NCBI GenBank assembly: GCA_964646515.1
Contig: CAZYES010000002.1
Coordinates: 1 to 61,347 of the forward strand
Length of the DNA stretch: 61,347 nt
Direction: 5' to 3'
DNA from: an uncultured Candidatus Saccharibacteria bacterium
Lineage (GTDB): Bacteria; Patescibacteriota; Minisyncoccia; Phycocordibacterales; PALSA-1337
Of the stretch, positions 7,655-17,618 are shown one piece after another. The notes beneath the pieces are model-generated. The model searched no databases, was not told the origin of the DNA, and saw only the letters and a program-made list of their open reading frames with translations. Position numbers and translations under genes: made by a program. How positions within the stretch are numbered: the first letter of the stretch is position 1; the number at the start of each line of letters is the position of its first letter.

Positions 7655-7768
7655 TTAACCTTTATTATTGTGCGCAGTTAGATACTTTACTTGAACTCTT
7701 TGATATTATCACAAAGACCTCGATACGTTTTTGGTATATACTTATTTGTAATTATGTCAAAAAATAAA

Positions 7769-8119
7769 TTACTGTGGGTCCTTACCGACTTGAGCAAGCC
7801 ACAACTTAAATGGTTCAGCTTTCGGAGATGGAATAGATTGGATAATGCGTAAAATACCCCGCAAATCAGCACAGCTCATCTTCTGTCGACCTCCTTTTGT
7901 CATTATGTCAAGGGTATGTACAATTTGTATCCACCCTTGACTAAGTTGCTCGTCGCGTTCTCTCATCCTTTGAACGTACTGTTTTGCATCATTCGACTCA
8001 ATAAGCGCTAACACTATATCTTCCACTACAAAATACCACCGCTCTTTGTGCCATGCTCGACGAATTTCGTGCGATTCGAAAAGTGCAATTGATTTTGATT
8101 CCTGTTCCTTCTTTTCCAT
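7769..8119 (-). CDS. phage-type Bro-N/KilA-N-like DNA-binding domain protein, probably C-terminally short
   Basis: IRRAWHKERWYFVVEDIVLAL...RIIQSIPSPKAEPFKLWLAQVG resembles the N-terminal module of prophage antirepressor-like proteins. This family call comes from memory of the motif, not from a search. Confidence 0.45.
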   Translation of the reverse strand: MEKKEQESKSIALFESHEIRRAWHKERWYFVVEDIVLALIESNDAKQYVQRMRERDEQLSQGWIQIVHTLDIMTKGGRQKMSCADLRGILRIIQSIPSPKAEPFKLWLAQVGKDPQ

Positions 8120-8199
8120 GCCACAATTTTCTCACTCCCAAAAGAAAAAACAATATTGACTACTATAAATATCAGTGCGGTATCACGAATAAATTTCTG

Positions 8200-8373
8200 G
8201 TGCGCGGGAGAGGACTCGGCTTCGCCTCTCGGCCGACCAGTCGTCCTCGGGCTAGCCACCGGCTCGCGGCTCGGCTTGCTAGCCTCGCACGCTGCGCCGT
8301 TCTCGTCCCTCCTTGCGTCACAATGATGCTCCACTCGGAGGCATAACATGCCTCCTCGTGGATCATTGTGCGC
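8200..8373. repeat. left 174-bp direct repeat (19-nt tRNA-Leu 3'-end copy plus 149-nt GC-rich module X plus GTGCGC)
   Basis: Compared base by base with 13688-13861 and found identical, at an offset of 5488 bp. Confidence 0.95.
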
Positions 8374-8417
8374 CGTCTGGAACGTTATTAGAACGGAGTT
8401 AAGTCTCGCAAGTTCAC

Positions 8418-9725
8418 CTATCTGTTATAAATAGCTTTCTCTGATCGTGCTTCAACTTCCTTCTTATATTCTCTTCGTGGCTTTTTCTTTTCCGCATCCA
8501 TTGCAAGCACGAATTCACGCTTCTTATCGGGTGAAAACTTACTAATCGTGCCTACCATTTCTTGCATCTGCTCGGGAGAAAGTGGATCTATCAACTCAGA
8601 AAAAGCGAGAGCTTGTGCTGCTGTTCTCACATCACCAGCATCTAAAGCAGCCAAACCGACGCCTTTTAATACCCGAGTACTTTCCATCGGATAATCATGA
8701 AAATCTAAAGCCCTATTTATGGCACCTTCCTTTTTTCTGTAGTCAAATACATTATTGACCCTTTCAGTCAGACCACGAATGAGTTCGTCGGGTTTTTCAA
8801 TTTTTTGATTCTCTTGAGTGACGTTAAAGCCGCCATTTTTACCTTTTTGCCGAAGCCCCTGACCATCTTTCAAAGCCTCTCTGTCTCTCCTCATCAGGTC
8901 TGCGAGCTTGTTCGGATCGTTGAGCTCTGCTATCTGATTTTTAAGATATTCAATGCGACGAGATGTCTCACCTCTCTTATAGGTTAAATAATCTTCTTTT
9001 TGTTTTGGTGTCCTTATAGAATCATTGGTATACTCGCCACTTGTAATGATTAGTTCCTCATTTTTAAGGGCAATTTCTTCTCTATCAATAGTCACCTGTA
9101 GAACACCTTCAACTGACCTTTTGTACAAATCAGGGTTTCCTGAGATAACAGCATAAGCTTCTTTGCCAGTGTCAATATCTGACGTCGCGATAAGTTTTTC
9201 TGCGGCCTTATTCAGTTCTGCCATTTGTTTTTCGCGCTCAACCTTTTCCTTATCTATCGGTTTAATGACACCCCCTTCCATCGTAAAACCTTTTGATTTG
9301 AATTCTTCATGAAAACGAGAGTTTTCCGCGCCCAAGGCTTGAAATTCTGGAGTAGATGTCCATGCGTCTCCAAATTTCTTATGACCTTCTTCATATTTAG
9401 CTTTCAACTCCGCATGTTTTTGTTGCAATTCAGCCAATACTGGGTCTTCATTTTTTGGACCAGTTGTCTCGCTCTCAGCAAGACCTTGAATATCTGTTGA
9501 ACTGGCAGCAGTTGATTCAACTCTCACCTCCTCCTTGCTGTCAACTTTAATTTCCTCTTGAAGACCTTTAAGCAAATCTTCCATATTCGCCGGTGTTGCT
9601 TCACTAGTTGGTTCAAGTATTTCAGGAGACGAAGTATTCCTTTTGGCTTCGTCTTCTTGACGGGCTTTTTCTAATAATTGATCCAGGCTTGGAGTTGATG
9701 AACTTTGTGGATTTTCTATGCTCAT
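8418..9725 (-). CDS. hypothetical acidic coiled-coil protein (element cargo)
   Basis: The ORF track begins at a TTG (9761). The first ATG (9725) gives MSIENPQSS... No recognisable domain. Confidence 0.5.
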   Translation of the reverse strand: MSIENPQSSSTPSLDQLLEKARQEDEAKRNTSSPEILEPTSEATPANMEDLLKGLQEEIKVDSKEEVRVESTAASSTDIQGLAESETTGPKNEDPVLAELQQKHAELKAKYEEGHKKFGDAWTSTPEFQALGAENSRFHEEFKSKGFTMEGGVIKPIDKEKVEREKQMAELNKAAEKLIATSDIDTGKEAYAVISGNPDLYKRSVEGVLQVTIDREEIALKNEELIITSGEYTNDSIRTPKQKEDYLTYKRGETSRRIEYLKNQIAELNDPNKLADLMRRDREALKDGQGLRQKGKNGGFNVTQENQKIEKPDELIRGLTERVNNVFDYRKKEGAINRALDFHDYPMESTRVLKGVGLAALDAGDVRTAAQALAFSELIDPLSPEQMQEMVGTISKFSPDKKREFVLAMDAEKKKPRREYKKEVEARSEKAIYNR

Positions 9726-9831
9726 AGAATTTATGTTAAAAATTGATAATTGTTTGAACAAGATCGATATGATTTGACTGACATAATAATACCACGTCTT
9801 CCGATAAAAGTGGCAGTCGGTTTTTGATCTT

Positions 9832-10133
9832 CGCCCCGCCCGTATCGGCTTTGGAGGGTAGGCGGTGCGCGAGCCGCTTTTGAGATGAGAACGCGTCTAC
9901 TTCCGCCCGTCACCACGAAACCTATTCGCGCCTAGCTCCTGTTGGTGCTGCGTAGCGCACCCCTATTGCGATCAGCAATTGGGGAAATGCGCGAAGCAGT
10001 ACGAACAGGAGCGTAAGGCGCGCCACATACCCTCTTAGGGCGGAAGTGGGCGCGTTCGTACTCTCGCATGTCACACGCTCCCGAAAAAGCGGCCGCGCAC
10101 GGCCTGCCCGGAAAAGCCGTTTGGGGCGGGGCG
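9832..10133. other. ~300-nt GC-rich, multiply nested stem structure (candidate single-strand origin or structured RNA)
   Basis: Nested perfect helices: 9832-9841/10124-10133 (10 bp), 9846-9852/10113-10119 (7), 9900-9908/10038-10046 (9), 9927-9932/10017-10022 (6), 9935-9943/10004-10012 (9), plus two terminal hairpins at about 9944-9961 and 9960-9984. Line 10081-10140 is 72% G+C. Confidence 0.65.
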
Positions 10134-10174
10134 CCACAGACGCAATCAATATTCATTGGTGTTAAACTATATGA

Positions 10175-11017
10175 ATGGATCTCCTCATAGCTGAACTTAA
10201 CCACAAATATTCAGAATTTTTAACTGCCATCGAAAGACACAGCCTCTGTAGGACTTCCAGAGCTGTATATGAATACTTTGATCTTGTTCAAGGACAGAAA
10301 ACCATACAGAAAATACTGGAAACTGACAGGCAAGAAATTGCTACTCGTAAGGCCATTGTAAACTCTGGTACCAGTTCAACCCAGGATAGTCGAGACGAAA
10401 TCGTGAGACGAATCGAAAGGAATTCGCTCACATATAGCCATGATTTAATTTACAACAAAATGTATGCGCCCATGAAGGCATACAAGGAATCTACCGATCA
10501 CAATGATGAGAAGGTACTGACCGGCATGTCTTTATTGTTTCAAAACGAATCTATTTCTGGAAAACTGATGGGTACTTGGGATCAATTCAAATTATACTGC
10601 GCACTGGATGACTTAGTTATTTGGATGGAGAGAATCCACGCGACTCTCGTAAAAAAGTTGCTTGAAGTAGAGAAACCAGAACCTGTGATTGCTTTTGATG
10701 CGCCGAACAAAATTAAGATCGTTATTGATGACCGCAAAGGTATTTACCAGGCTGACAAAGAACAGAATGCTTATGGTATTGAGAGAGACAGCAACAGAAT
10801 GAAACTGATCGAGCACCTCATTTCAAAAGATAACTGTGGCATCGCAGAGTTAGAAGAAATTACGGGTCAAGCGAGAAACGTCACCATAAAATCAATAGCG
10901 AAAATTAACGAGCTATTTAGAGAATATTTACATCTTGTTGACGATCTGATTCTTAGCTTGAAGACAGGTGGCTATTCGCTCAACAAGGACGTTTTCGACA
11001 TTATCGTGAAGCCGTAA
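10175..11017 (+). CDS. hypothetical protein with a possible C-terminal winged-helix/HTH tail (element cargo)
   Basis: 280-aa ORF with an ATG start. The C-terminal CGIAELEEITGQARNVTIKSIAKINELF looks HTH-like. Followed by a terminator. Confidence 0.5.
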   Translation: MDLLIAELNHKYSEFLTAIERHSLCRTSRAVYEYFDLVQGQKTIQKILETDRQEIATRKAIVNSGTSSTQDSRDEIVRRIERNSLTYSHDLIYNKMYAPMKAYKESTDHNDEKVLTGMSLLFQNESISGKLMGTWDQFKLYCALDDLVIWMERIHATLVKKLLEVEKPEPVIAFDAPNKIKIVIDDRKGIYQADKEQNAYGIERDSNRMKLIEHLISKDNCGIAELEEITGQARNVTIKSIAKINELFREYLHLVDDLILSLKTGGYSLNKDVFDIIVKP

Positions 11018-11047
11018 CCTTTAGGTGTTGTTGGTAAGTCCAGCCTA

Positions 11048-11073
11048 GGCGTCTAAAATACGCCCTCTTTTTT
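11048..11073 (+). terminator. intrinsic terminator
   Basis: GGCGT ctaaaat ACGCC followed by CTCTTTTTT. Confidence 0.55.
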
Positions 11074-11122
11074 GCATGAAGGTCATCTAACGGTTCATAT
11101 TGAAAATTGCGACCATTATCTC

Positions 11123-11326
11123 ATGGCACACCAATTCAGCCATGAGCTAACACAACGAGCACAGACATACTTCGGGGAAAAATCCGGTCGAGATATTTCA
11201 CATGAAGAAGCCAATGAGTACATGAACAGTCTGGCTAGCTTGTACGAATCGTTTATGGAATTGGCGGTGGCCGGCGGGACTGCTTCCGATGCTTTAGCGC
11301 GGAGCAGTCCGCCGGCAGTGCTTTGA
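11123..11326 (+). CDS. hypothetical small protein (element cargo)
   Basis: The track ORF starts at TTG 11072. The in-frame ATG at 11123 gives MAHQFSHELTQRAQTYF... The 3' end overlaps the conserved-loop hairpin. Confidence 0.4.
   Translation: MAHQFSHELTQRAQTYFGEKSGRDISHEEANEYMNSLASLYESFMELAVAGGTASDALARSSPPAVL
11270..11316 (+). repeat. conserved-loop hairpin, copy b (loop ATGCTTTAGCG)
   Basis: GCCGGC-G-GGACTGC-T-TCCG [ATGCTTTAGCG] CGGA-GCAGTCC-GCCGGC, about 17 bp with two single-nt bulges. Confidence 0.6.
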
Positions 11327-11366
11327 TGACTTGCTAGAGACCTAACCTAAGACAATACAGAAAACA

Positions 11367-12191
11367 ATGGGCTACAACAAAATCGTCACCTACGGAAACA
11401 TAATTGAAACATTCACATATGCAAGAGATCCCAATATTCCTCCAAGAACACAAAGAAGACATTCGTGCCATGCTGGAATTCCTGGTGCTTCAGATGATGC
11501 TGGCTCTGTCGATGAACGAGAGGCTTTCGAAGGCAAGCGCAAGGACAACGCAGACCGCGCTTCAATGGTTTTTCGACAACTCGTCCTCGCTAACCTTACA
11601 GGAACTGAATATCCTCTACTCCTTACTGCGACGTACCGGGACAACCAAACGGACTTACGCCAAGGCTACAGAGATTTCGGCGCTTTCATCCAGGCTATGC
11701 GCTATCGATTTGGAAAAGAATGGCGGTATATTGCAGTCCCCGAATTTCAAAAACGTGGAGCTGTTCATTTCCACGCTCTCATCTGGGGATTACCCACAAG
11801 TGTGTTTGAAGAAGAGCGATCTACCCGATTGGTTGCGGGACTCTGGAAACATGGATTTGTTTACCTCAAAATGACCGATGGGAATGAAAAGCTATCGTCA
11901 TATCTGACCAAATACATGGCTAAATCATTTGTAGACAGAAGACTCATGAATCAGAAAGCATATGTCTGCTCAAGAAATCTGAAGCGGCCTCAAGTCGTTG
12001 GCCACATTTCAAAATTCAGCATTGATACTTACCTAGAAGAATGTGGTGTGACTGATCCGGAAATCGACAACTCATACGAAACGCGTTGGCTTGGAACAGC
12101 ACGCCACCGCATTTACAAGCTCTCCACAGAAAATCCACCGAAACAAAAATTGTCCGAAGAAAATATTGAGAGTACAATTCCGTTAACTTAA
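11367..12191 (+). CDS. HUH-superfamily rolling-circle replication initiator (Rep)
   Basis: Motif I LLLTATY, motif II (HUH) AVHFHALIWG and motif III YLTKYMAKS, with two Tyr spaced YxxKY, occur in the canonical order. Confidence 0.75.
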   Translation: MGYNKIVTYGNIIETFTYARDPNIPPRTQRRHSCHAGIPGASDDAGSVDEREAFEGKRKDNADRASMVFRQLVLANLTGTEYPLLLTATYRDNQTDLRQGYRDFGAFIQAMRYRFGKEWRYIAVPEFQKRGAVHFHALIWGLPTSVFEEERSTRLVAGLWKHGFVYLKMTDGNEKLSSYLTKYMAKSFVDRRLMNQKAYVCSRNLKRPQVVGHISKFSIDTYLEECGVTDPEIDNSYETRWLGTARHRIYKLSTENPPKQKLSEENIESTIPLT

Positions 12192-12233
12192 ATTATTTTT
12201 TATTCTCATTATCAACATAACCATATCAATCAC

Positions 12234-13814
12234 ATGAAATACATTTTGTACTGTAGAAAATCCACTGATACTGAAGACAAACAGGTGCTTTCCCTTGAAT
12301 CACAGGAGAAGGAGCTTACCGATCTCGCCAAAGACCGGAATCTTGAAATCGTCCAAATTCTCACTGAAAAGAAATCTGCCAAAGCTCCCGGCCGCCCTGT
12401 ATTTAACGAAATGATGACTGCCATTTCTGCCGGCAAAGCCGACGCTATTCTCTGCTGGAAAATTGATCGCCTGACGCGTAACCCCGTTGATGGAGGACAG
12501 ATCCAATGGCTACTTCAAAACGGCAATATCAAGTGTATCCAGACTTCAGAGAAAACATATTTGCCTAGCGACAATGTGTTGTTAATGAGCATTGAGCAAG
12601 CTATGGCTAACCAATACATTCGCGATTTGAGCACGAATGTAAAGCGTGGAAATAGAGCCAAACTTGAACACGGCGGCTGGCCTAATCATGCACCGTTTGG
12701 CTATCTTAACGACAAAGCTAGCAATTCAATCATCTTGGACAAGAAACATTCTAAGTATGTGCCACGCATATTTGATCTCTACATTACCGGCGCTTACAGC
12801 CTGCAACAGATTTCAGATATTCTCTTCAAAGAGGGTCTTCGCACCTGCTCCGGGGACAAGGTACGCAAGGGAAAGATTCATAAAGTCCTGTGCAATAAAT
12901 TCTATATCGGCCTCATGGAAAGAGACGGCAAAATCTATCAAGGCAATCACGAAACATTGATCTCAAAATCCACCTTCGACAAAGCCCAAGACATTCTCTG
13001 TGGCCGCATCCATTCACGAAAACGCAATCATTTCTATTCAGCCCGAGGATTCCTGCAATGCGCCTCCTGCGGCTGTAATTTAACCTGTGACACCAAGAAA
13101 GGATTCAAGTATTACTACTGCACCAACGGCAAGGGCAATTGTGAACAGCATAAAAAATACATGAGATCTGAATTCATTGATGAACTGCTGGCCAAAATGT
13201 TCCTTAATCTCAAATTCGACGAGCAACTCATTCAAATGTCCGCTGATGCTTACAAAGAATCCAACCAGAGCAAGATTGATTACACACAATCGGCTACTGA
13301 TGCCCTCACAAGCGAGCTACAAGCCCTCACAAAGAAAGAATCTGTCTTAACCGACGGATATGCTTCTGAAGTCATTAAACCTGATATGTACAAGCAGAAG
13401 ATGTTGGAAATTGAAAACAAGAGAGCCGAGCTACAAACACAGCTCACAGAAATTCAGTCAAAGGGACCAGTCACTCAAGTTACTTTCGAACAGATCAGGA
13501 ATATTTTTATGGACGGCAACAGGGCCTCGGAAAAGTATATGGCCTCCGGAGATGAAGCAAAACGAAATATGCTGTCAAAGCTACTTTCGAACGCAACCAT
13601 CAAAAATCGAGAAGTGGCGCAGTACCAATTCAAAAGCCCGTATCAGGTGCTCGCGGAAACACCCAAAAACATTGATTTTGAAAAATTGTGCGCGGGAGAG
13701 GACTCGGCTTCGCCTCTCGGCCGACCAGTCGTCCTCGGGCTAGCCACCGGCTCGCGGCTCGGCTTGCTAGCCTCGCACGCTGCGCCGTTCTCGTCCCTCC
13801 TTGCGTCACAATGA
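12234..13814 (+). CDS. large serine recombinase (integrase)
   Basis: N-terminal resolvase-type catalytic region YCRKSTDTEDKQVLSLESQ...ILCWKIDRLTRN; recombinase domain; zinc ribbon CASCGCNL...YYYCTNGKGNC; coiled-coil C-terminus. The last ~42 codons and the stop lie inside the right 174-bp repeat. Confidence 0.85.
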   Translation: MKYILYCRKSTDTEDKQVLSLESQEKELTDLAKDRNLEIVQILTEKKSAKAPGRPVFNEMMTAISAGKADAILCWKIDRLTRNPVDGGQIQWLLQNGNIKCIQTSEKTYLPSDNVLLMSIEQAMANQYIRDLSTNVKRGNRAKLEHGGWPNHAPFGYLNDKASNSIILDKKHSKYVPRIFDLYITGAYSLQQISDILFKEGLRTCSGDKVRKGKIHKVLCNKFYIGLMERDGKIYQGNHETLISKSTFDKAQDILCGRIHSRKRNHFYSARGFLQCASCGCNLTCDTKKGFKYYYCTNGKGNCEQHKKYMRSEFIDELLAKMFLNLKFDEQLIQMSADAYKESNQSKIDYTQSATDALTSELQALTKKESVLTDGYASEVIKPDMYKQKMLEIENKRAELQTQLTEIQSKGPVTQVTFEQIRNIFMDGNRASEKYMASGDEAKRNMLSKLLSNATIKNREVAQYQFKSPYQVLAETPKNIDFEKLCAGEDSASPLGRPVVLGLATGSRLGLLASHAAPFSSLLASQ

Positions 13815-13861
13815 TGCTCCACTCGGAGGCATAACATGCCTCCTCGTGGATCATTGTGCGC
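13688..13861. repeat. right 174-bp direct repeat, fused to the tRNA-Leu 3' end
   Basis: Identical to 8200-8373. Its last 6 nt are the first 6 nt (on the plus strand) of the genuine tRNA 3' end. Confidence 0.95.
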
Positions 13862-13940
13862 GGGAGAGGACTCGAACCTCCATGCCCTAATGGGCGCTAC
13901 CACCTCAAGGTAGTGCGTCTACCAATTTCGCCACCCGCGC
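13857..13940 (-). tRNA. tRNA-Leu (anticodon GAG), long variable arm
   Basis: The minus strand reads GCGCGGG TG GCG-AAATTGGTAGA-CGC A CTACC TTGAGGT GGTAG CGCCCATTAGGGCATG GAGG TTCGAGT CCTC T CCCGCGC A; 84 nt. Confidence 0.9.
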
Positions 13941-14011
13941 TTTATAAACCACAATATTCAAAAAACTATAAGATACTGGCTAACTATAACCAAAAAACAC
14001 TAGTTTTTCAA

Positions 14012-14036
14012 TTAAAAATGTCTGCCAAAAGCAGAC
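14012..14036 (-). terminator. intrinsic terminator downstream of rplS
   Basis: The minus strand reads GTCTGC TTTTG GCAGAC followed by ATTTTTAATT. Confidence 0.6.
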
Positions 14037-14064
14037 CTGACGATTCCTCAACTTGTCTCATAAA

Positions 14065-14493
14065 TTATCCCTCCACTTCCTCCTTGGCTACTTCTCCTGT
14101 AGCCACAGCCTCTGTGACCATTGCCTCCGGCACGTCCTTCATGGTCATAGTACGACGCATCTGATGGCGAATCTCCTTGGCAGCTTTGCGCCTAATAAAA
14201 TACAACTTGGCACGACGAACCTTGGCGCGACGAATGATATCTACATCATCAATCATCGGCGAGTACAAAGGGAAAGTACGCTCAACACCAACACCATCAA
14301 TAACTTTGCGTACGGTAAAAGTAGCTCCCGCTTCGCGACCGTGTTTGCACGAGATAACGATACCTTCGAATGCCTGCAAGCGGAACTTGCCTTTGTCTTC
14401 TTCTATTTTCTGCCAAACACACAGAGTATCACCAGCACGAATGCCGAGATTCCTACGTTCCTCTATATTCACGGTCGTTATTACCTTTACCAT
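14065..14493 (-). CDS. rplS: 50S ribosomal protein L19 with an acidic C-terminal extension
   Basis: GDTLCVWQKIEEDKGKFRLQAFEGIVISCKHGREAGATFTVRKV..GVGVERTFPLYSP is the L19 core. Confidence 0.9.
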   Translation of the reverse strand: MVKVITTVNIEERRNLGIRAGDTLCVWQKIEEDKGKFRLQAFEGIVISCKHGREAGATFTVRKVIDGVGVERTFPLYSPMIDDVDIIRRAKVRRAKLYFIRRKAAKEIRHQMRRTMTMKDVPEAMVTEAVATGEVAKEEVEG

Positions 14494-14560
14494 AGTGAAA
14501 ATACACTATCATAAGCAGTACAAATATTCAAGAAAACTAACCACAGACTAAAGCCTAGTC

Positions 14561-15373
14561 TCACTGTTTGAGTTGTTCTAAAGCATACTCGAAATCGGCT
14601 GGCAGGGGCGCTTCAACCGCAATGCGTTTACCTTTTGTCATATTCTCAAATTCAATAAAACACGAATGGAGCGCAAGCCTTTGGAAACCCAACACCATTG
14701 GTCTTTTTGGCGCATAGAGAATATCTCCAACAACCGGGTGATTCACGGCATTCAGATGAACACGTATCTGGTGCGTCCTCCCCGTCTTTGGCTGGACCTC
14801 AAGATAAGAAAACTTTTCCATTTTCATTTTCCCTCCAAATGTATCCCCAAGCTTTCCATGTTCATAAGAAGAGTAATCGGGTATATCAATTTTGCCACTT
14901 ACAATCTTGGTCCAATAAGTCTCGGCTTCCCTCAGTTCACCTCTCGCGCCCCTCTGTGCAGACCACTTGCGAAAATCATTTCCACTTCTGCCAATCGGTC
15001 TTATAATAGTGCCAAATTCTTCATCCATCTCTCCCCAAACAAAAGCCTTATATTTCTTCGTAATAGTTCTATCCTTGAATTGTTTCTTCAGATGAGCATG
15101 CCCGTTGGCTGTCTTCGCAATAATTAACGCCCCAGATGTCTCCCGATCTAGACGATGAACGATACCCGCCCGATTAACCGGTTTGCCACTAGCGTCAGTC
15201 ATCGGATCTCCAACATTCTCTGCCTCTGGAAAATTATTAACAATCCATTCAGTCAAGAACGGCCCTTTCGCCCTACCATCGGAATGCACCATGAGACCGG
15301 CTGGCTTGTTAACAACAACACAATCCGTATCTTCATATAAGATTTCTACTTCTATACTCTCTTTATTGCTCAT
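14561..15373 (-). CDS. rluD: RluA/RluD-family pseudouridine synthase
   Basis: HRLDRETSGALIIAK catalytic motif. The true start is taken as ATG 15373 (MSNKESIEVE), because the track ORF up to 15742 runs through tRNA-Val and the GC-rich module. Confidence 0.85.
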   Translation of the reverse strand: MSNKESIEVEILYEDTDCVVVNKPAGLMVHSDGRAKGPFLTEWIVNNFPEAENVGDPMTDASGKPVNRAGIVHRLDRETSGALIIAKTANGHAHLKKQFKDRTITKKYKAFVWGEMDEEFGTIIRPIGRSGNDFRKWSAQRGARGELREAETYWTKIVSGKIDIPDYSSYEHGKLGDTFGGKMKMEKFSYLEVQPKTGRTHQIRVHLNAVNHPVVGDILYAPKRPMVLGFQRLALHSCFIEFENMTKGKRIAVEAPLPADFEYALEQLKQ

Positions 15374-15459
15374 AGCATGAATATACGCTAATCTATGGCA
15401 AAGGTGAAGTGCCATTGAAATCTTCAATCCTTGCAACCAGTTGCCCACAAAATTAACAT

Positions 15460-15532
15460 GCGCGATTAGCTCAGTTGGTAGAGCAGTGCTTTTACACAGC
15501 AAAGGTCGGGGGTTCGAATCCCTCATCGCGCA
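15460..15532 (+). tRNA. tRNA-Val (anticodon TAC)
   Basis: GCGCGAT TA GCTC-AGTTGGTA-GAGC A GTGCT TTTACAC AGCAA AGGTC GGGGG TTCGAAT CCCTC ATCGCGC A. Confidence 0.9.
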
Positions 15533-15780
15533 CATTTGATCTGTACCCCCTAGTGAGTTTGTAAGCAACAGCAAGTCGCCTACGCGACTTGCGCGAGGGA
15601 TTCGAACAGCGAGCGATCTCCGAGCCAGCGGGCGAGGAGCGCGAGCTGGTGCCCAGGAAATGTGAGCGGGTAGCGAACATTTCCGAGGGCGAATCCTCGA
15701 TCGCGCACTGCTTCGCTCGCTATCGCGGGCTACGCAGTGCAAGCACCAGTCCTGCGTAGCTTTAGCGGAGCAGGACTAAT
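15533..15780 (+). repeat. GC-rich module V, 3' of tRNA-Val, containing a degenerate second copy of the tRNA 3' end
   Basis: GAATCCTCGATCGCGCAC (15691-15708) compares with the tRNA's GAATCCCTCATCGCGCAC (15516-15533), 175 nt upstream. An inverted T-arm copy TGCGCGAGGGATTCGAAC lies at 15590-15607. Hairpins lie at 15571-15592, 15704-15740 and 15748-15777. Confidence 0.7.
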
Positions 15781-15794
15781 TCGTAAGCGTCTGA

Positions 15795-17618
15795 TTACAT
15801 CTTCACCGCCGCAACCTTGTCCATCGGGAAGACAGAGCTAGTCAACACTTCGCAAAGTATACCTGGGCAAGCATTACTTGTTACTGGATAGAAACCGTAA
15901 TAACCCAAAGTACCAAGAGTGCCCAATCCATATATACCTTCTCCGGCCTGTGGTTGTATGGCCATTATTTCGTCCACTGTAGCAGGCCGATATCCCATCG
16001 CAGCTAGTCTCAAGGCAATTTCTTTTGGCTGTACGCCAAGTTTGTCTCTACCCAGAGCATCTATAATTGGAGAATCTGGCATTAATCTTTTGAACTGGAA
16101 CACTGTTACAGTAACCTCTTTCGGAGGAGTATCCTTAGCCTGAACAAGATTATTCATGTGCTTTCTACTAAAAAACAGGTCTTTGCCATAACGAACGTTG
16201 GCCGTATATGACTTGGCTATATATTCTGACGGTGACATAACCGGGCGAACGGGCACTATTATTATTTTCGTCTCGGGAGCATTCAGACTAAGTATTTTTT
16301 GTTTGTTATATTCTGGGGGAAGATTGGAAACATAATTACTATCCAAACACAGACCAAAGACGACTGGATTTCTATAAAGCCAATCGGCTGAACTATAGTA
16401 TCTTTGAACTCCTGAGCCCTTTTCAACGGCACCGGGCCTTGTCCCATATGATTTATACAACCAAGTAAATGGCACGTGCTCTACTACTGAACGTATGTAC
16501 AGTTTCTCTGGAGTTAGAAGTGAACTTGCTGTCGCTTGACCAGATTGGATCATTTCGTTTGCCTTCTCAAAACTTACCACATTCGTACAACCTTTCTCTA
16601 TATGATTGTACGACGCACCACCGGCTAGACCTATGGTACACCCTTCTGGTGGGCAATCCAGTGCAATATATTCACCCGAAGGATTCAGTGTCTCTTTGGC
16701 TTGTGAAATTCCTTGGATAGATTTGAGTGCCGACCTATATTCTGTTTGAGTAAACAATTTACCAGTATTTGGGTTTTTCTTCGTCATCCATGTGGTTGAA
16801 TCCCAAAAGAAATAATTTATGGAGTTATATACATGCCACTCACCAGGATAGGGATTACTCACTTTTGTACCATCAGCATTATTGCATATTACACTAAAAT
16901 CATTTGACTTGGCACCACCACATGAATAGTCATAATAAGTCGGAATGTTTACAGTCATATACTCCAAACCGTTTCGCTGTTTTACAGTGCTTGTAGCCAA
17001 CCAATCAGTTGCCCAGGTGGCCTTAGTTCTATAACTAAAAGTTGGCACGTTCAGCATAGACGCGAGAGAGACGGTATTACTAGTACCAGTGGTATTCGTA
17101 GTTGCGGTAGTAGTTGTATTGTATGGCCAAGAATTACTCGGCGTCAGAGAACCCAAGAGACTGTTCAACAAAGTTTGCCCGGCTCCCGAGTCAGTTTGAG
17201 ATGACTGGGTATTCTGATATGAAGCGGTAGTTACAGTGTTATTGGTGGCACCGGTAGTCTTCGGCGTACAAGTATAACCAGAGGGACAGTCAACACCTAT
17301 AGAATATGACGAGACCGTGTTCGTGGAATAGGACGATGTATTCGCTGGTAAATCCGAAGTATTACAGCTCTCTTGCTGTATAGCCGATCTGGTCAAAGCG
17401 CCAACATAACCCGTACCTTCTATGTTATGAGCTATCTGGTATCTTTTGACAGCACTCATAGTCATAGTACCAAAATAACCCGTTGGCTCTGTATCGAGAT
17501 AACCAGTGCGTACTAGATAATCTTGTAGAGCGGTCACATTGGTGCTGGTAGTACCTCTGCCAACATCAGCAGGAAATGGTGACACAAGAATTCTGGAGAT
17601 CACTACCCGATGGGTCAT
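15795..17618 (-). CDS. surface protein with a PG-binding-like domain; body of a gene whose signal peptide is out of frame
   Basis: ADVGRGTTSTNVTALQDYLVRTGYLD...GYFGTMTMSAVKRYQ is a PG_binding-type segment. The CPSGYTCTP motif is shared with ORF 4794..6962. See the frameshift finding. Confidence 0.65.
   Translation of the reverse strand: MTHRVVISRILVSPFPADVGRGTTSTNVTALQDYLVRTGYLDTEPTGYFGTMTMSAVKRYQIAHNIEGTGYVGALTRSAIQQESCNTSDLPANTSSYSTNTVSSYSIGVDCPSGYTCTPKTTGATNNTVTTASYQNTQSSQTDSGAGQTLLNSLLGSLTPSNSWPYNTTTTATTNTTGTSNTVSLASMLNVPTFSYRTKATWATDWLATSTVKQRNGLEYMTVNIPTYYDYSCGGAKSNDFSVICNNADGTKVSNPYPGEWHVYNSINYFFWDSTTWMTKKNPNTGKLFTQTEYRSALKSIQGISQAKETLNPSGEYIALDCPPEGCTIGLAGGASYNHIEKGCTNVVSFEKANEMIQSGQATASSLLTPEKLYIRSVVEHVPFTWLYKSYGTRPGAVEKGSGVQRYYSSADWLYRNPVVFGLCLDSNYVSNLPPEYNKQKILSLNAPETKIIIVPVRPVMSPSEYIAKSYTANVRYGKDLFFSRKHMNNLVQAKDTPPKEVTVTVFQFKRLMPDSPIIDALGRDKLGVQPKEIALRLAAMGYRPATVDEIMAIQPQAGEGIYGLGTLGTLGYYGFYPVTSNACPGILCEVLTSSVFPMDKVAAVKM

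Follow-up and report, generated by a model that had tools for sequence, protein, structure and literature searches.

We found, in a 61,347-nucleotide (nt) stretch of DNA from an uncultured Candidatus Saccharibacteria bacterium (hereafter the window), an element at the tRNA-Leu(GAG) gene that encodes a rolling-circle replication initiator (Rep) and a large serine recombinase (LSR) and is bounded on both sides by identical copies of a short structured module, which we term X, together with copies of the tRNA 3′ end. The account that we regard as likely, taken as a whole, is that an integrative rolling-circle element of 5,488 bp has inserted at the tRNA-Leu(GAG) gene of a chromosome of the Candidate Phyla Radiation (CPR)/Patescibacteria type, where it exchanges with a module linked to that tRNA. 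X and the adjoining 19-nt tRNA 3′ end (the 19-mer) would form a discrete unit, one copy of a conserved structured module that is found directly 3′ of tRNA genes. The chromosome would hold one such module after tRNA-Leu with or without the element, the element would hold an identical copy, and both integration and excision would be a reciprocal exchange anywhere in the 174 bp common to circle and chromosome (the hexamer GCGCAC plus the module). Reciprocal exchange within this shared stretch would thus account for the two modules and three tRNA 3′ ends of the integrated form.

The anatomy of the locus centers on a 174-nt direct repeat, which a repeat search of the window recovered as two 100% identical copies (8200-8373 and 13688-13861) lying 5488 nt apart from start to start; a 174/174 match of this kind cannot be chance. 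The right copy comprises core copy 2 of the 19-mer (13688-13706), X1 (13707-13855) and GTGCGC (13856-13861), and the left copy comprises core copy 3 (8200-8218), X2 (8219-8367) and GTGCGC (8368-8373). After this terminal GTGCGC, the left repeat gives way to cargo and the right one runs on as the tRNA-Leu(GAG) gene (13856/7-13940, minus strand; ARAGORN; Rfam tRNA, 52.4 bits), whose last 19 nt (13856-13874) constitute core copy 1. The 19-mer spans the tRNA from the T-loop (GGTT/CGAGTCC...) to the discriminator plus one base, and it is contained in a 22-nt repeat family, ATTGTGCGCGGGAGAGGACTCG, with copies at 13685-13706 and 13853-13874 and a third at 8197-8218 (91% identity). X itself is 149 nt long, the unit of X plus 19-mer (the X-core) 168 nt, and its G+C content of 63-65% contrasts with ~42% in the window. 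The three tRNA-Leu 3′ ends and two copies of X reported in a first-pass annotation of the letters are thus confirmed, both by the perfect repeat and by the ARAGORN and Rfam placement of the tRNA.

Contigs of the same population, which we found by exact-protein look-ups in a series of JGI samples, display the element in three states. The integrated form is seen as in the window on at least five other contigs. A circle is represented by a contig of 5,615 nt with a 127-nt terminal overlap (L004), which is an exact circular permutation of window positions 8200-13687 with 0 mismatches, giving a circle of 5,488 nt with one core-X-GTGCGC; a linear contig from another sample (L005) spans integrase end, core, X, GTGCGC and cargo in this order, i.e., the same junction as in the circle. 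The empty site is found on a 60-kb contig (L014/L023) and on L018, both of which read tRNA-Leu-X-19-mer-flank, lack exactly 5,488 nt and match the reconstructed empty site at 323/323 positions. One X-core, therefore, stays in the chromosome when the element is absent, another is in the circle, and the integrated form is their sum via an exchange in the shared 174 bp. This supports both the attachment-site architecture proposed in the first-pass annotation and its suggestion that the element had recombined into a pre-existing X-core, as element-free contigs keep tRNA-Leu-X-core-flank and circles hold core-X-GTGCGC.

The recombinase is a 526-codon gene (12234-13814, plus strand) with the domain set of large serine integrases: a Resolvase catalytic domain (PF00239, 4.4e-23, residues 4-148) in which Y6, R8 and S10 are invariant in the homologue alignment (YxRxS context), a Recombinase domain (PF07508, 3.5e-13) and a zinc ribbon (Zn_ribbon_recom, PF13408) that scores 23.5 bits, slightly under its 25.3 cut-off, alongside four Cys that are invariant among the homologues. 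It also matches a PHROG integrase family and, over residues 48-458, the SPbeta integrase YokA in the PDB (E=6e-12). Its relatives number in the thousands in CPR/Patescibacteria assemblies, with identities of 45-67% and a closest value of 91% among the best matches listed, and our assignment of the host to this group is based on them. Across 80 related LSR loci from species-representative CPR genomes, a tRNA gene lies antisense to the LSR gene and overlaps its 3′ end by ~19 nt in 60, and the tRNAs concerned include those for Gln, Ser, Leu, Ile, Lys, Trp, Tyr, Pro, Arg and Asn. The C-termini of many LSR homologues are consequently translated antisense tRNA (e.g., ...DSNQD...). Two classes of tails were observed (homologues P0007, P0010, P0040, P0097 and P0117): ...DLDSNQD..LQR..SYH, which corresponds to antisense tRNA in the integrated, attL form, and ...AVWDDIR..LL.., which corresponds to an antisense attachment site in the attP form; the state of the element can therefore be read from the protein end. 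More distant LSRs (30-37% identity) likewise have their 3′ ends against tRNA-Leu genes on unrelated metagenome contigs (L188, L176, L212, L224 and L198), so that the targeting of tRNA ends reaches well beyond the close family. We found no description of CPR serine recombinases at tRNAs, of the tRNA targeting of this clade or of the X module in the searchable literature.

The partner site of these recombinases is a conserved site of ~30 nt, the P-arm site, which lies 3-6 kb upstream of the LSR genes, reads GGTTCCAAC(A/T)TCGT(A/C)CCA(G/C)A in the tRNA orientation, resembles a T arm with 4-5 additional nucleotides and is followed by 7-9 nt identical to the acceptor 3′ strand typical of the tRNA that is targeted. 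In comparable relatives the block of identity between attL and attR amounts to 5-10 nt at the extreme tRNA 3′ end (e.g., CGGCGCACA in L032 and GCGCGCACAA in L033), a length typical of serine integrases. A second copy of the last 20 nt of the tRNA was found upstream of the LSR gene at only 5 of ~60 loci, and a long repeat is therefore not a rule of the family. A hidden Markov model (HMM) of the attachment site, built from 56 sites of other loci and none from the window, has a sole match in the window, at 8364-8395 on the minus strand (E=2.8e-4), which follows the family motif as CGTTCTAATAACGTTCCAGACG/GCGCAC/AATG. Within it, GCGCAC (8368-8373) is the 6-nt stretch common to the P-arm site and the tRNA terminus, and we read it as the common core of a canonical attP half-site. 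The 19-22-nt repeat had earlier been taken as the identity core of the integrase; with relatives sharing the P-arm plus 5-10 nt and the one match in the window ending in GCGCAC, the 19-mer is probably not the crossover core. In the closest relatives (L032 at tRNA-Tyr and L052 at tRNA-Leu, each 91% identical), the integrase gene lies directly against the tRNA without X. In the window element, the 168-nt X-core is wedged between P-arm/GCGCAC and the integrase 3′ end, which abut in related elements, so that element and chromosomal partner share this module besides the short core, where relatives share 5-10 nt.

A separate arrangement of attachment sites was seen upstream of two other LSR genes, where the ~30-nt sites form arrays (L058:1-5600, 10-12 copies; L055:300-6500, 5-7 copies), all in one orientation, 360-1,400 nt apart and typically with one small open reading frame (ORF) between neighbors. 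These resemble integron-like cassette arrays beside a serine recombinase; the L058 integrase gene has no abutting tRNA.

The recombinase ORF does stop within X1, as first annotated, and its last 42 codons are antisense to core copy 2 and X1. Similarity to its relatives ceases near residue 488-491, i.e., at the end of core copy 2, and we accordingly take the 42-codon tail to be a non-conserved read-through into antisense X. The idea that it forms a functional extension was rejected, as the homologues end at about residue 488-504 with antisense tRNA or antisense P-arm tails; so was the idea that X is an inverted remnant of the integrase gene, as the frame upstream of the inverted tRNA-end copy of X (C_inv) is, on inspection, unlike the conserved C-terminus.

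From the related loci, we infer that the LSR's own crossover would fall in GCGCAC[A], within the ~6-9 nt that end the tRNA. A reaction of P-arm/GCGCAC/X with tRNA/GCGCAC/X would give exactly the integrated form, and so, equally, would an exchange elsewhere in the repeat; because both partners are identical on one side, the products of the former reaction equal its substrates in sequence. Catalysis of this exchange by the LSR and homologous recombination over the 174 bp appear about equally likely. Were the LSR to accept such sites, integration and excision would be one reaction, with no need for an excision or directionality factor; no candidate for such a factor was identified among the three ORFs of unknown family in the element. 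The element may have acquired the module from a tRNA trailer by alternative excision or recombination, or it may itself seed such modules. Acquisition would probably have occurred at a tRNA that bears a module, by excision with, or recombination through, the outer copy of the tRNA end, and arrangements such as those in L070 and L099 could represent the state that precedes capture.

Several points weigh against this account. The 174-nt copies in 30 population contigs are all 100% identical, so the crossover point cannot be mapped by variants, and the assignment of the crossover to GCGCAC leans on related loci rather than on this element. Further, each of the four junction types has the module as one half, so that none would count as a full attP or attB under the rules accepted for LSRs. 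The sites are thus hybrids (attR-like versus attB-like), and catalysis of this exchange is not what known enzymes would lead one to expect, which makes homologous recombination over the 174 bp an equally good candidate. The circle L004 and the empty-site contigs were seen at the contig level, and the 174-bp repeat exceeds the probable assembly k, given the 127-nt overlap of L004; these contigs could in principle be paths of the assembler through the repeat, and tandem modules in the empty site (168-nt period) would collapse in assembly. Taken to its end, this line of reasoning holds that only the integrated form is real and the others are alternative graph paths, in keeping with the many contigs that break within the repeat. 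We judge this quite unlikely in view of the empty site lying well within contigs of 60 kb and 7.8 kb from two samples, the recovery of the circle junction in two further samples, once in a linear contig, and the origin of the integrated, empty and episomal contigs in different samples of one series. A metagenome scan with a 26-mer of tRNA-Leu, a query common to many species, recovered no X-less tRNA-Leu site of the same species; it did yield new members of the module family.

The duplicated X could alternatively be the relic of a collapsed tandem insertion, in which the tRNA-proximal copy of the element lost its cargo by a deletion at GCGCAC microhomology and left X1 and core copy 2 behind. 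Such a deletion is formally possible, since GCGCAC both closes the 19-mer and precedes X. As noted above, this hexamer is the end of the conserved attachment site of the family rather than chance microhomology, and the cargo-free contigs keep exactly one X-core. The same flanking architecture recurs at a tRNA-Tyr gene in another genome, where an LSR 87% identical to that of the window is accompanied by three 172-nt repeats (L031). These are 90-98% identical, have spacings of 5,226 and 2,453 nt and in every case immediately follow a tRNA end or a P-arm/GGCGCAC site. By this comparison, the architecture is recurrent and no accident, and arrays with several units are also found in L055 and L058. 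With X-type modules following many tRNAs with no element on the contig, we regard a one-off collapsed tandem, which had been offered as an explanation earlier, as exceedingly improbable.

Instead of such a relic, we found X to be a member of a module family tied to tRNA genes. In the window itself, the tRNA-Val(TAC) gene (15460-15533, plus strand) is directly followed by a second member (15534-15708; 15460-15708 together with the tRNA) of 175 nt and ~60% G+C, which has an inverted copy of the tRNA-Val 3′ end (GCGCGAGGGATTCGAAC) and a terminal direct copy matching at 16/19 positions, and which has no adjacent recombinase. Local alignment and nhmmer comparisons of the Leu and Val modules were marginal or negative; a covariance model, built from five and then from thirteen members, was later positive, matching the Val module over 15591-15708 (E=5e-11 with the first model and 1e-18 with the second). 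Of 128 tRNAs in the window and the LSR loci, 7 have their own last 18 nt repeated downstream beyond a spacer of 80-183 nt, with 0 in an upstream control; in an independent set of 120 metagenome loci, the count was 14 of 368 tRNAs (3.8%). Covariance matches were obtained in at least 13 loci (besides the window, L049, L051, L067 with two, L070, L090, L099, L125, L150, L159 with two, L170, L177 and L199), and in all of them a tRNA or an LSR attR site of the same orientation immediately precedes the module. Rfam 15, searched at gathering and E-value thresholds, gave no match to X of the window or to four further members, and two pattern scans of IMG/VR for the module returned only chance matches in coding DNA.

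The modules share a common order in the tRNA orientation: after the tRNA end come a hairpin, often terminator-like, an inverted copy of the T-loop and the T-stem 3′ strand (sometimes also the acceptor) of that particular tRNA, a conserved core, and lastly the tRNA sequence from the T-loop onward, repeated in direct orientation. The conserved core consists of GCCGGAGCG, a hairpin with an AGTA/AGCA loop, CGCGAG.CGGTGGCTAGCCCGAG, a further hairpin and GA(G/A)AGGCGAAGC, the last of which pairs with GGCT in the covariance model. The Leu modules of the window follow this plan. X1 opens with an imperfect hairpin, s1 (13808-13855, minus strand; fold and module comparison), directly after the tRNA 3′ end, at a position occupied by a terminator-like hairpin in other members; the fold gives 7+4+7 bp with an internal loop and a 3-nt bulge, where a perfect inverted repeat had been annotated. 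The structured core of module copy 1 (13688-13806, minus strand) comprises C_inv, the inverted tRNA 3′-end copy GGAGGGACGAGAAC, helices P2-P4 and the direct 19-nt copy C2, and that of module copy 2 lies at 8200-8318; both match the covariance model at E ~1e-26. The segment GAGAGG-N11-CCTCTC, annotated in the first pass as a T-arm mimic, belongs to the conserved GA(G/A)AGGCGAAGC, which is not complementary to the T-stem in other members (e.g., the tRNA-Lys module of L159), and its T-stem complementarity in the window copy appears to be largely coincidental.

The closing helix, formed by the inverted copy with the direct tRNA-end copy, follows the identity of the neighboring tRNA (Leu, Val, Arg, Lys, Gln, Asp and others); for instance, adjacent tRNA-Arg and tRNA-Lys genes on one contig (L159) each have a module with nearly identical cores and tRNA-specific ends. 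Among 12 distinct sequences, 90.5% of the alignment cells are paired, as against 62.5% after shuffling (0 of 500 shuffles reach the observed value) and 35-44% with slid partners, and 33 of 39 pairs, including those of the closing helix, show changes on both sides; these figures are tempered by the alignment having been fitted to the model structure, a further point against our account. G-U pairs number 26 and A-C pairs 13, which mildly favors the tRNA-sense strand.

That the module is a private relic of the element, as might be supposed from the window, is not supported, for the family follows many tRNAs and extends to recombinase-free contigs. Five X-bearing contigs (L125, L150, L159, L170 and L177) have no LSR, Rep or P-arm site, and the module therefore exists apart from LSR elements. 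At the same time, modules lie directly after a canonical attR site in the window, L031 (twice), L049, L051, L067, L070 and L099, and a divergent subtype does so in L044 and L074. About one-fifth of the loci with a recognizable P-arm site have a module as against ~4% of tRNAs, a rough comparison given that the detection criteria differ. The first-pass annotation had set its attachment-site view of X against the alternative of a chromosomal feature downstream of tRNAs with no link to recombinases; the occurrence of X after tRNAs without recombinases largely agrees with that alternative, yet its enrichment at LSR attachment sites does not. We tentatively propose, at somewhat less than even chances, that X-cores are a new structured class, likely a small RNA and possibly single-stranded DNA, found at ~4% of CPR tRNAs, with a terminal helix that is rebuilt from the tRNA, and that they could serve as portable second attachment sites, in effect landing pads or decoys of the tRNA end, which serine-integrase elements would enter, capture into attP and carry to new tRNAs, giving rise to reversible, factor-independent integration and to multi-cassette arrays.

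Several further observations concern the module-bearing contigs. In a tRNA-His module (L221:4846-5080), the sequence after the direct copy repeats the tRNA trailer and terminator over at least 37 nt (AATAATGAGTCAAACACGAAAGTGTTTGACGAGTGTA), so the duplicated segment can reach past the tRNA end. Two CPR contigs that hold X modules also show Rfam group I intron matches beside or within tRNA genes (L159:6418-6645 and L170:752-974, both on the minus strand; 81 and 70 bits).

As to what the module does, we favor a small RNA with a tRNA-like terminal helix, the 3′ end of which doubles as a second attachment site. The X-core would be a small RNA gene with a tRNA-like minihelix and a three-helix insert, co-transcribed with the tRNA or just after it, and its 3′ end would offer integrases a second attB-like target, which is compatible with our explanation of the locus; we hold this as a leading yet provisional reading that falls a little short of an even chance. 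The covariation, the orientation that always matches the tRNA, the G+C content far above that of the genome and the G-U bias toward the tRNA-sense strand are all in its favor. Our preference derives from three observations in particular: the order tRNA-Arg-X-tRNA-Lys-X-terminator in L159, which places the Arg module inside a tRNA operon; the terminators after the direct copy in L150, L116, L159 and L221; and the consensus scan of the window, which called no terminator-like site in the stretch from tRNA-Leu to X1. The same scan gave a promoter-like site upstream of tRNA-Leu (TTGAAA-17-TATAGT, 13983-14011, minus strand), a pattern match alone. Against the small RNA speak the strong terminator-like hairpin before the module in several members and the lack of an Rfam family.

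A role as folded single-stranded DNA is possible, and in its full form, which we consider unlikely, the X-core would be a folded single-strand attachment or replication site of rolling-circle elements, comparable to the attP(+) of CTX phage or the single-strand origin of plasmids. The paired inverted and direct tRNA-end copies in the displaced strand would mimic a duplex tRNA gene end, chromosomal modules would be footprints or miniature satellites, and with a copy of X on either side of the cargo, Rep could release unit-length circles with no excision step, as happens in CTX-RS1 arrays. This would fit with the phage pII-type Rep of the element, the inverted and direct target copies ~90 nt apart that close a covarying structure, a unit-length circle equal to the repeat spacing, and the terminator-like hairpins between tRNA and module in several members, which are awkward for a co-transcribed RNA. 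However, no tyrosine recombinase was found among the ORFs of the element with Pfam and PHROG, and serine recombinases cut both strands, so that a hairpin site is not productively used by them. Moreover, the folded strand favored by G-T over A-C pairs (26 to 13) is antisense to rep, opposite to the usual orientation of origins, the five contigs listed above hold X without Rep or LSR, and a much larger hairpin within the cargo is itself a candidate origin.

The repeat boundary, which falls in the T-loop in all modules, raises another alternative, namely that X is the leftover arm of a tyrosine-integrase island, unrelated to the serine recombinase. Islands of T-loop-type tyrosine integrases are classically recognized by a direct repeat that begins in the T-loop and reaches the tRNA 3′ end, and the sublocation classes of tRNA integration sites that Williams reportedly described in 2002 match this boundary. 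No tyrosine recombinase was found next to any module examined, and the only recombinase in the element is the serine enzyme. The modules are complete and uniform (a unit of 120-190 nt) rather than randomly truncated, and they keep their pairing despite differing helix sequences, with conserved AGTA/AGCA loops, which points to a folded nucleic acid rather than to protein-binding arms. We hence consider an island relic highly improbable.

Between the 174-nt repeats the element has five genes: two for proteins of unknown family (447 and 280 aa), a small ORF, the Rep and the LSR. The Rep (11367-12191, plus strand) is identified by its matches to PF23343 (REP_ORF2-G2P, 2.8e-21) and phrog_3419 (1.3e-28) and has the HUH motif HFHALIW and the Tyr motif YLTKYMAK. 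From the ORF list, the 447-aa ORF (8418-9761, minus strand; 435 aa in other calls) has the orientation of the tRNA and X, and the 280-aa cargo protein (10175-11017, plus strand) is called as a gene on all contigs and has no Pfam or PHROG match. Between these divergent genes, three GC-rich nested inverted repeats form one hairpin of ~300 nt (9832-10133; repeat search; DNA fold z = -10.1), which we predict to be a candidate replication origin of the rolling-circle element; no similarity between X and this hairpin was found. In a population variant (L021, JGI 3300076588) that is 99.8% identical to window positions 12603-17603, one gap lies inside the integrase gene, which is called as two ORFs (217 and 122+ aa), and the recombinase may thus be inactivated in some cells. 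About 700 nt beyond core copy 3, a 33-nt stretch (7664-7696) is 73% identical to the P-arm/GTGCGC site (ATTATTGTGCGCAGTTAGATACTTTACTTGAAC), though below significance with the attachment-site HMM, and a gene with a Bro-N domain (7769-8119) lies between it and core copy 3. The two may represent an older, decayed cassette, in which case the host flank would itself be mobile DNA.

The locus offers a natural example of a serine integrase with attP and attB identical on one side, for which the integrated, empty and circular forms are found in one community. If the integrase does catalyze the exchange, directionality control, which is central to the biology and engineering of serine integrases, would be bypassed by site architecture alone. 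More broadly, a large CPR-specific clade of these enzymes targets the last nucleotides of tRNAs, its attP arm resembling a T arm that has been expanded, and it provides a compact comparative data set on how attP and attB are read. X, for its part, is a new and well-supported structured element tied to tRNA 3′ ends in minimal genomes, with tRNA processing, a decoy function or an integration platform as candidate roles, and the chance that it constitutes a new class of element is a credible one.

Among known systems, the LSRs of phages and islands (phiC31, Bxb1, A118 and the SPbeta SprA/YokA) resemble that of the window in domain set, in the position of attP beside the gene and, as judged by its relatives, in a short common core (5-10 nt). 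The attP half-sites of known LSRs are longer, and the P-arm here, which is like the B-arm (T arm) plus 4-5 nt, recalls this feature. Known LSRs mostly target protein-coding genes, whereas the present enzyme is directed to the extreme tRNA 3′ end, and the stop region of its gene overlaps the antisense tRNA; a further difference is the 168-nt module that interrupts attP and recurs at attB, which leaves attL/attR with the same sequence as attB/attP. The CTX phage and RS1 offer a rolling-circle replicon with a pII-type Rep, inverted target copies ~90 nt apart and small flanking repeats. Here, as distinct from the Xer-dependent CTX system, the element encodes a serine enzyme and has a tRNA end instead of dif as its target. 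The tRNA-like domain of tmRNA, mascRNA and the Y RNA YrlA share with X a helix of 5′ and 3′ parts resembling the acceptor/T-stem, which ends in tRNA 3′ sequence, and a structured insert. X differs from them in having no T-loop, its nucleotides being paired, in copying the adjacent tRNA in its helix and in matching no Rfam family.

The accretion of ICESt3 with cis-mobilizable elements (CIMEs) in Streptococcus thermophilus, along with tandem tRNA islands, offers a further parallel, with an integrase-less unit bounded by att-like repeats, an autonomous element beside it and three repeats in all. As with CIMEs, the recombinase-less unit is present without the element (the empty-site contigs read tRNA-core-X-core-flank), and the small unit is co-excised, with L004 and L005 each containing one X-core at the contig level. 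Tyrosine recombinases act there and a serine integrase here, and CIMEs are kilobase-sized decayed elements, whereas X is a unit of 120-190 nt that is folded, conserved and re-specified for each tRNA. Nor does X look like a decayed element of the same recombinase, as it has no P-arm motif of the family and occurs on LSR-free contigs. By analogy, the locus nonetheless probably works like the accretion of an integrative element with a small cis-mobilizable unit at a tRNA attachment site.

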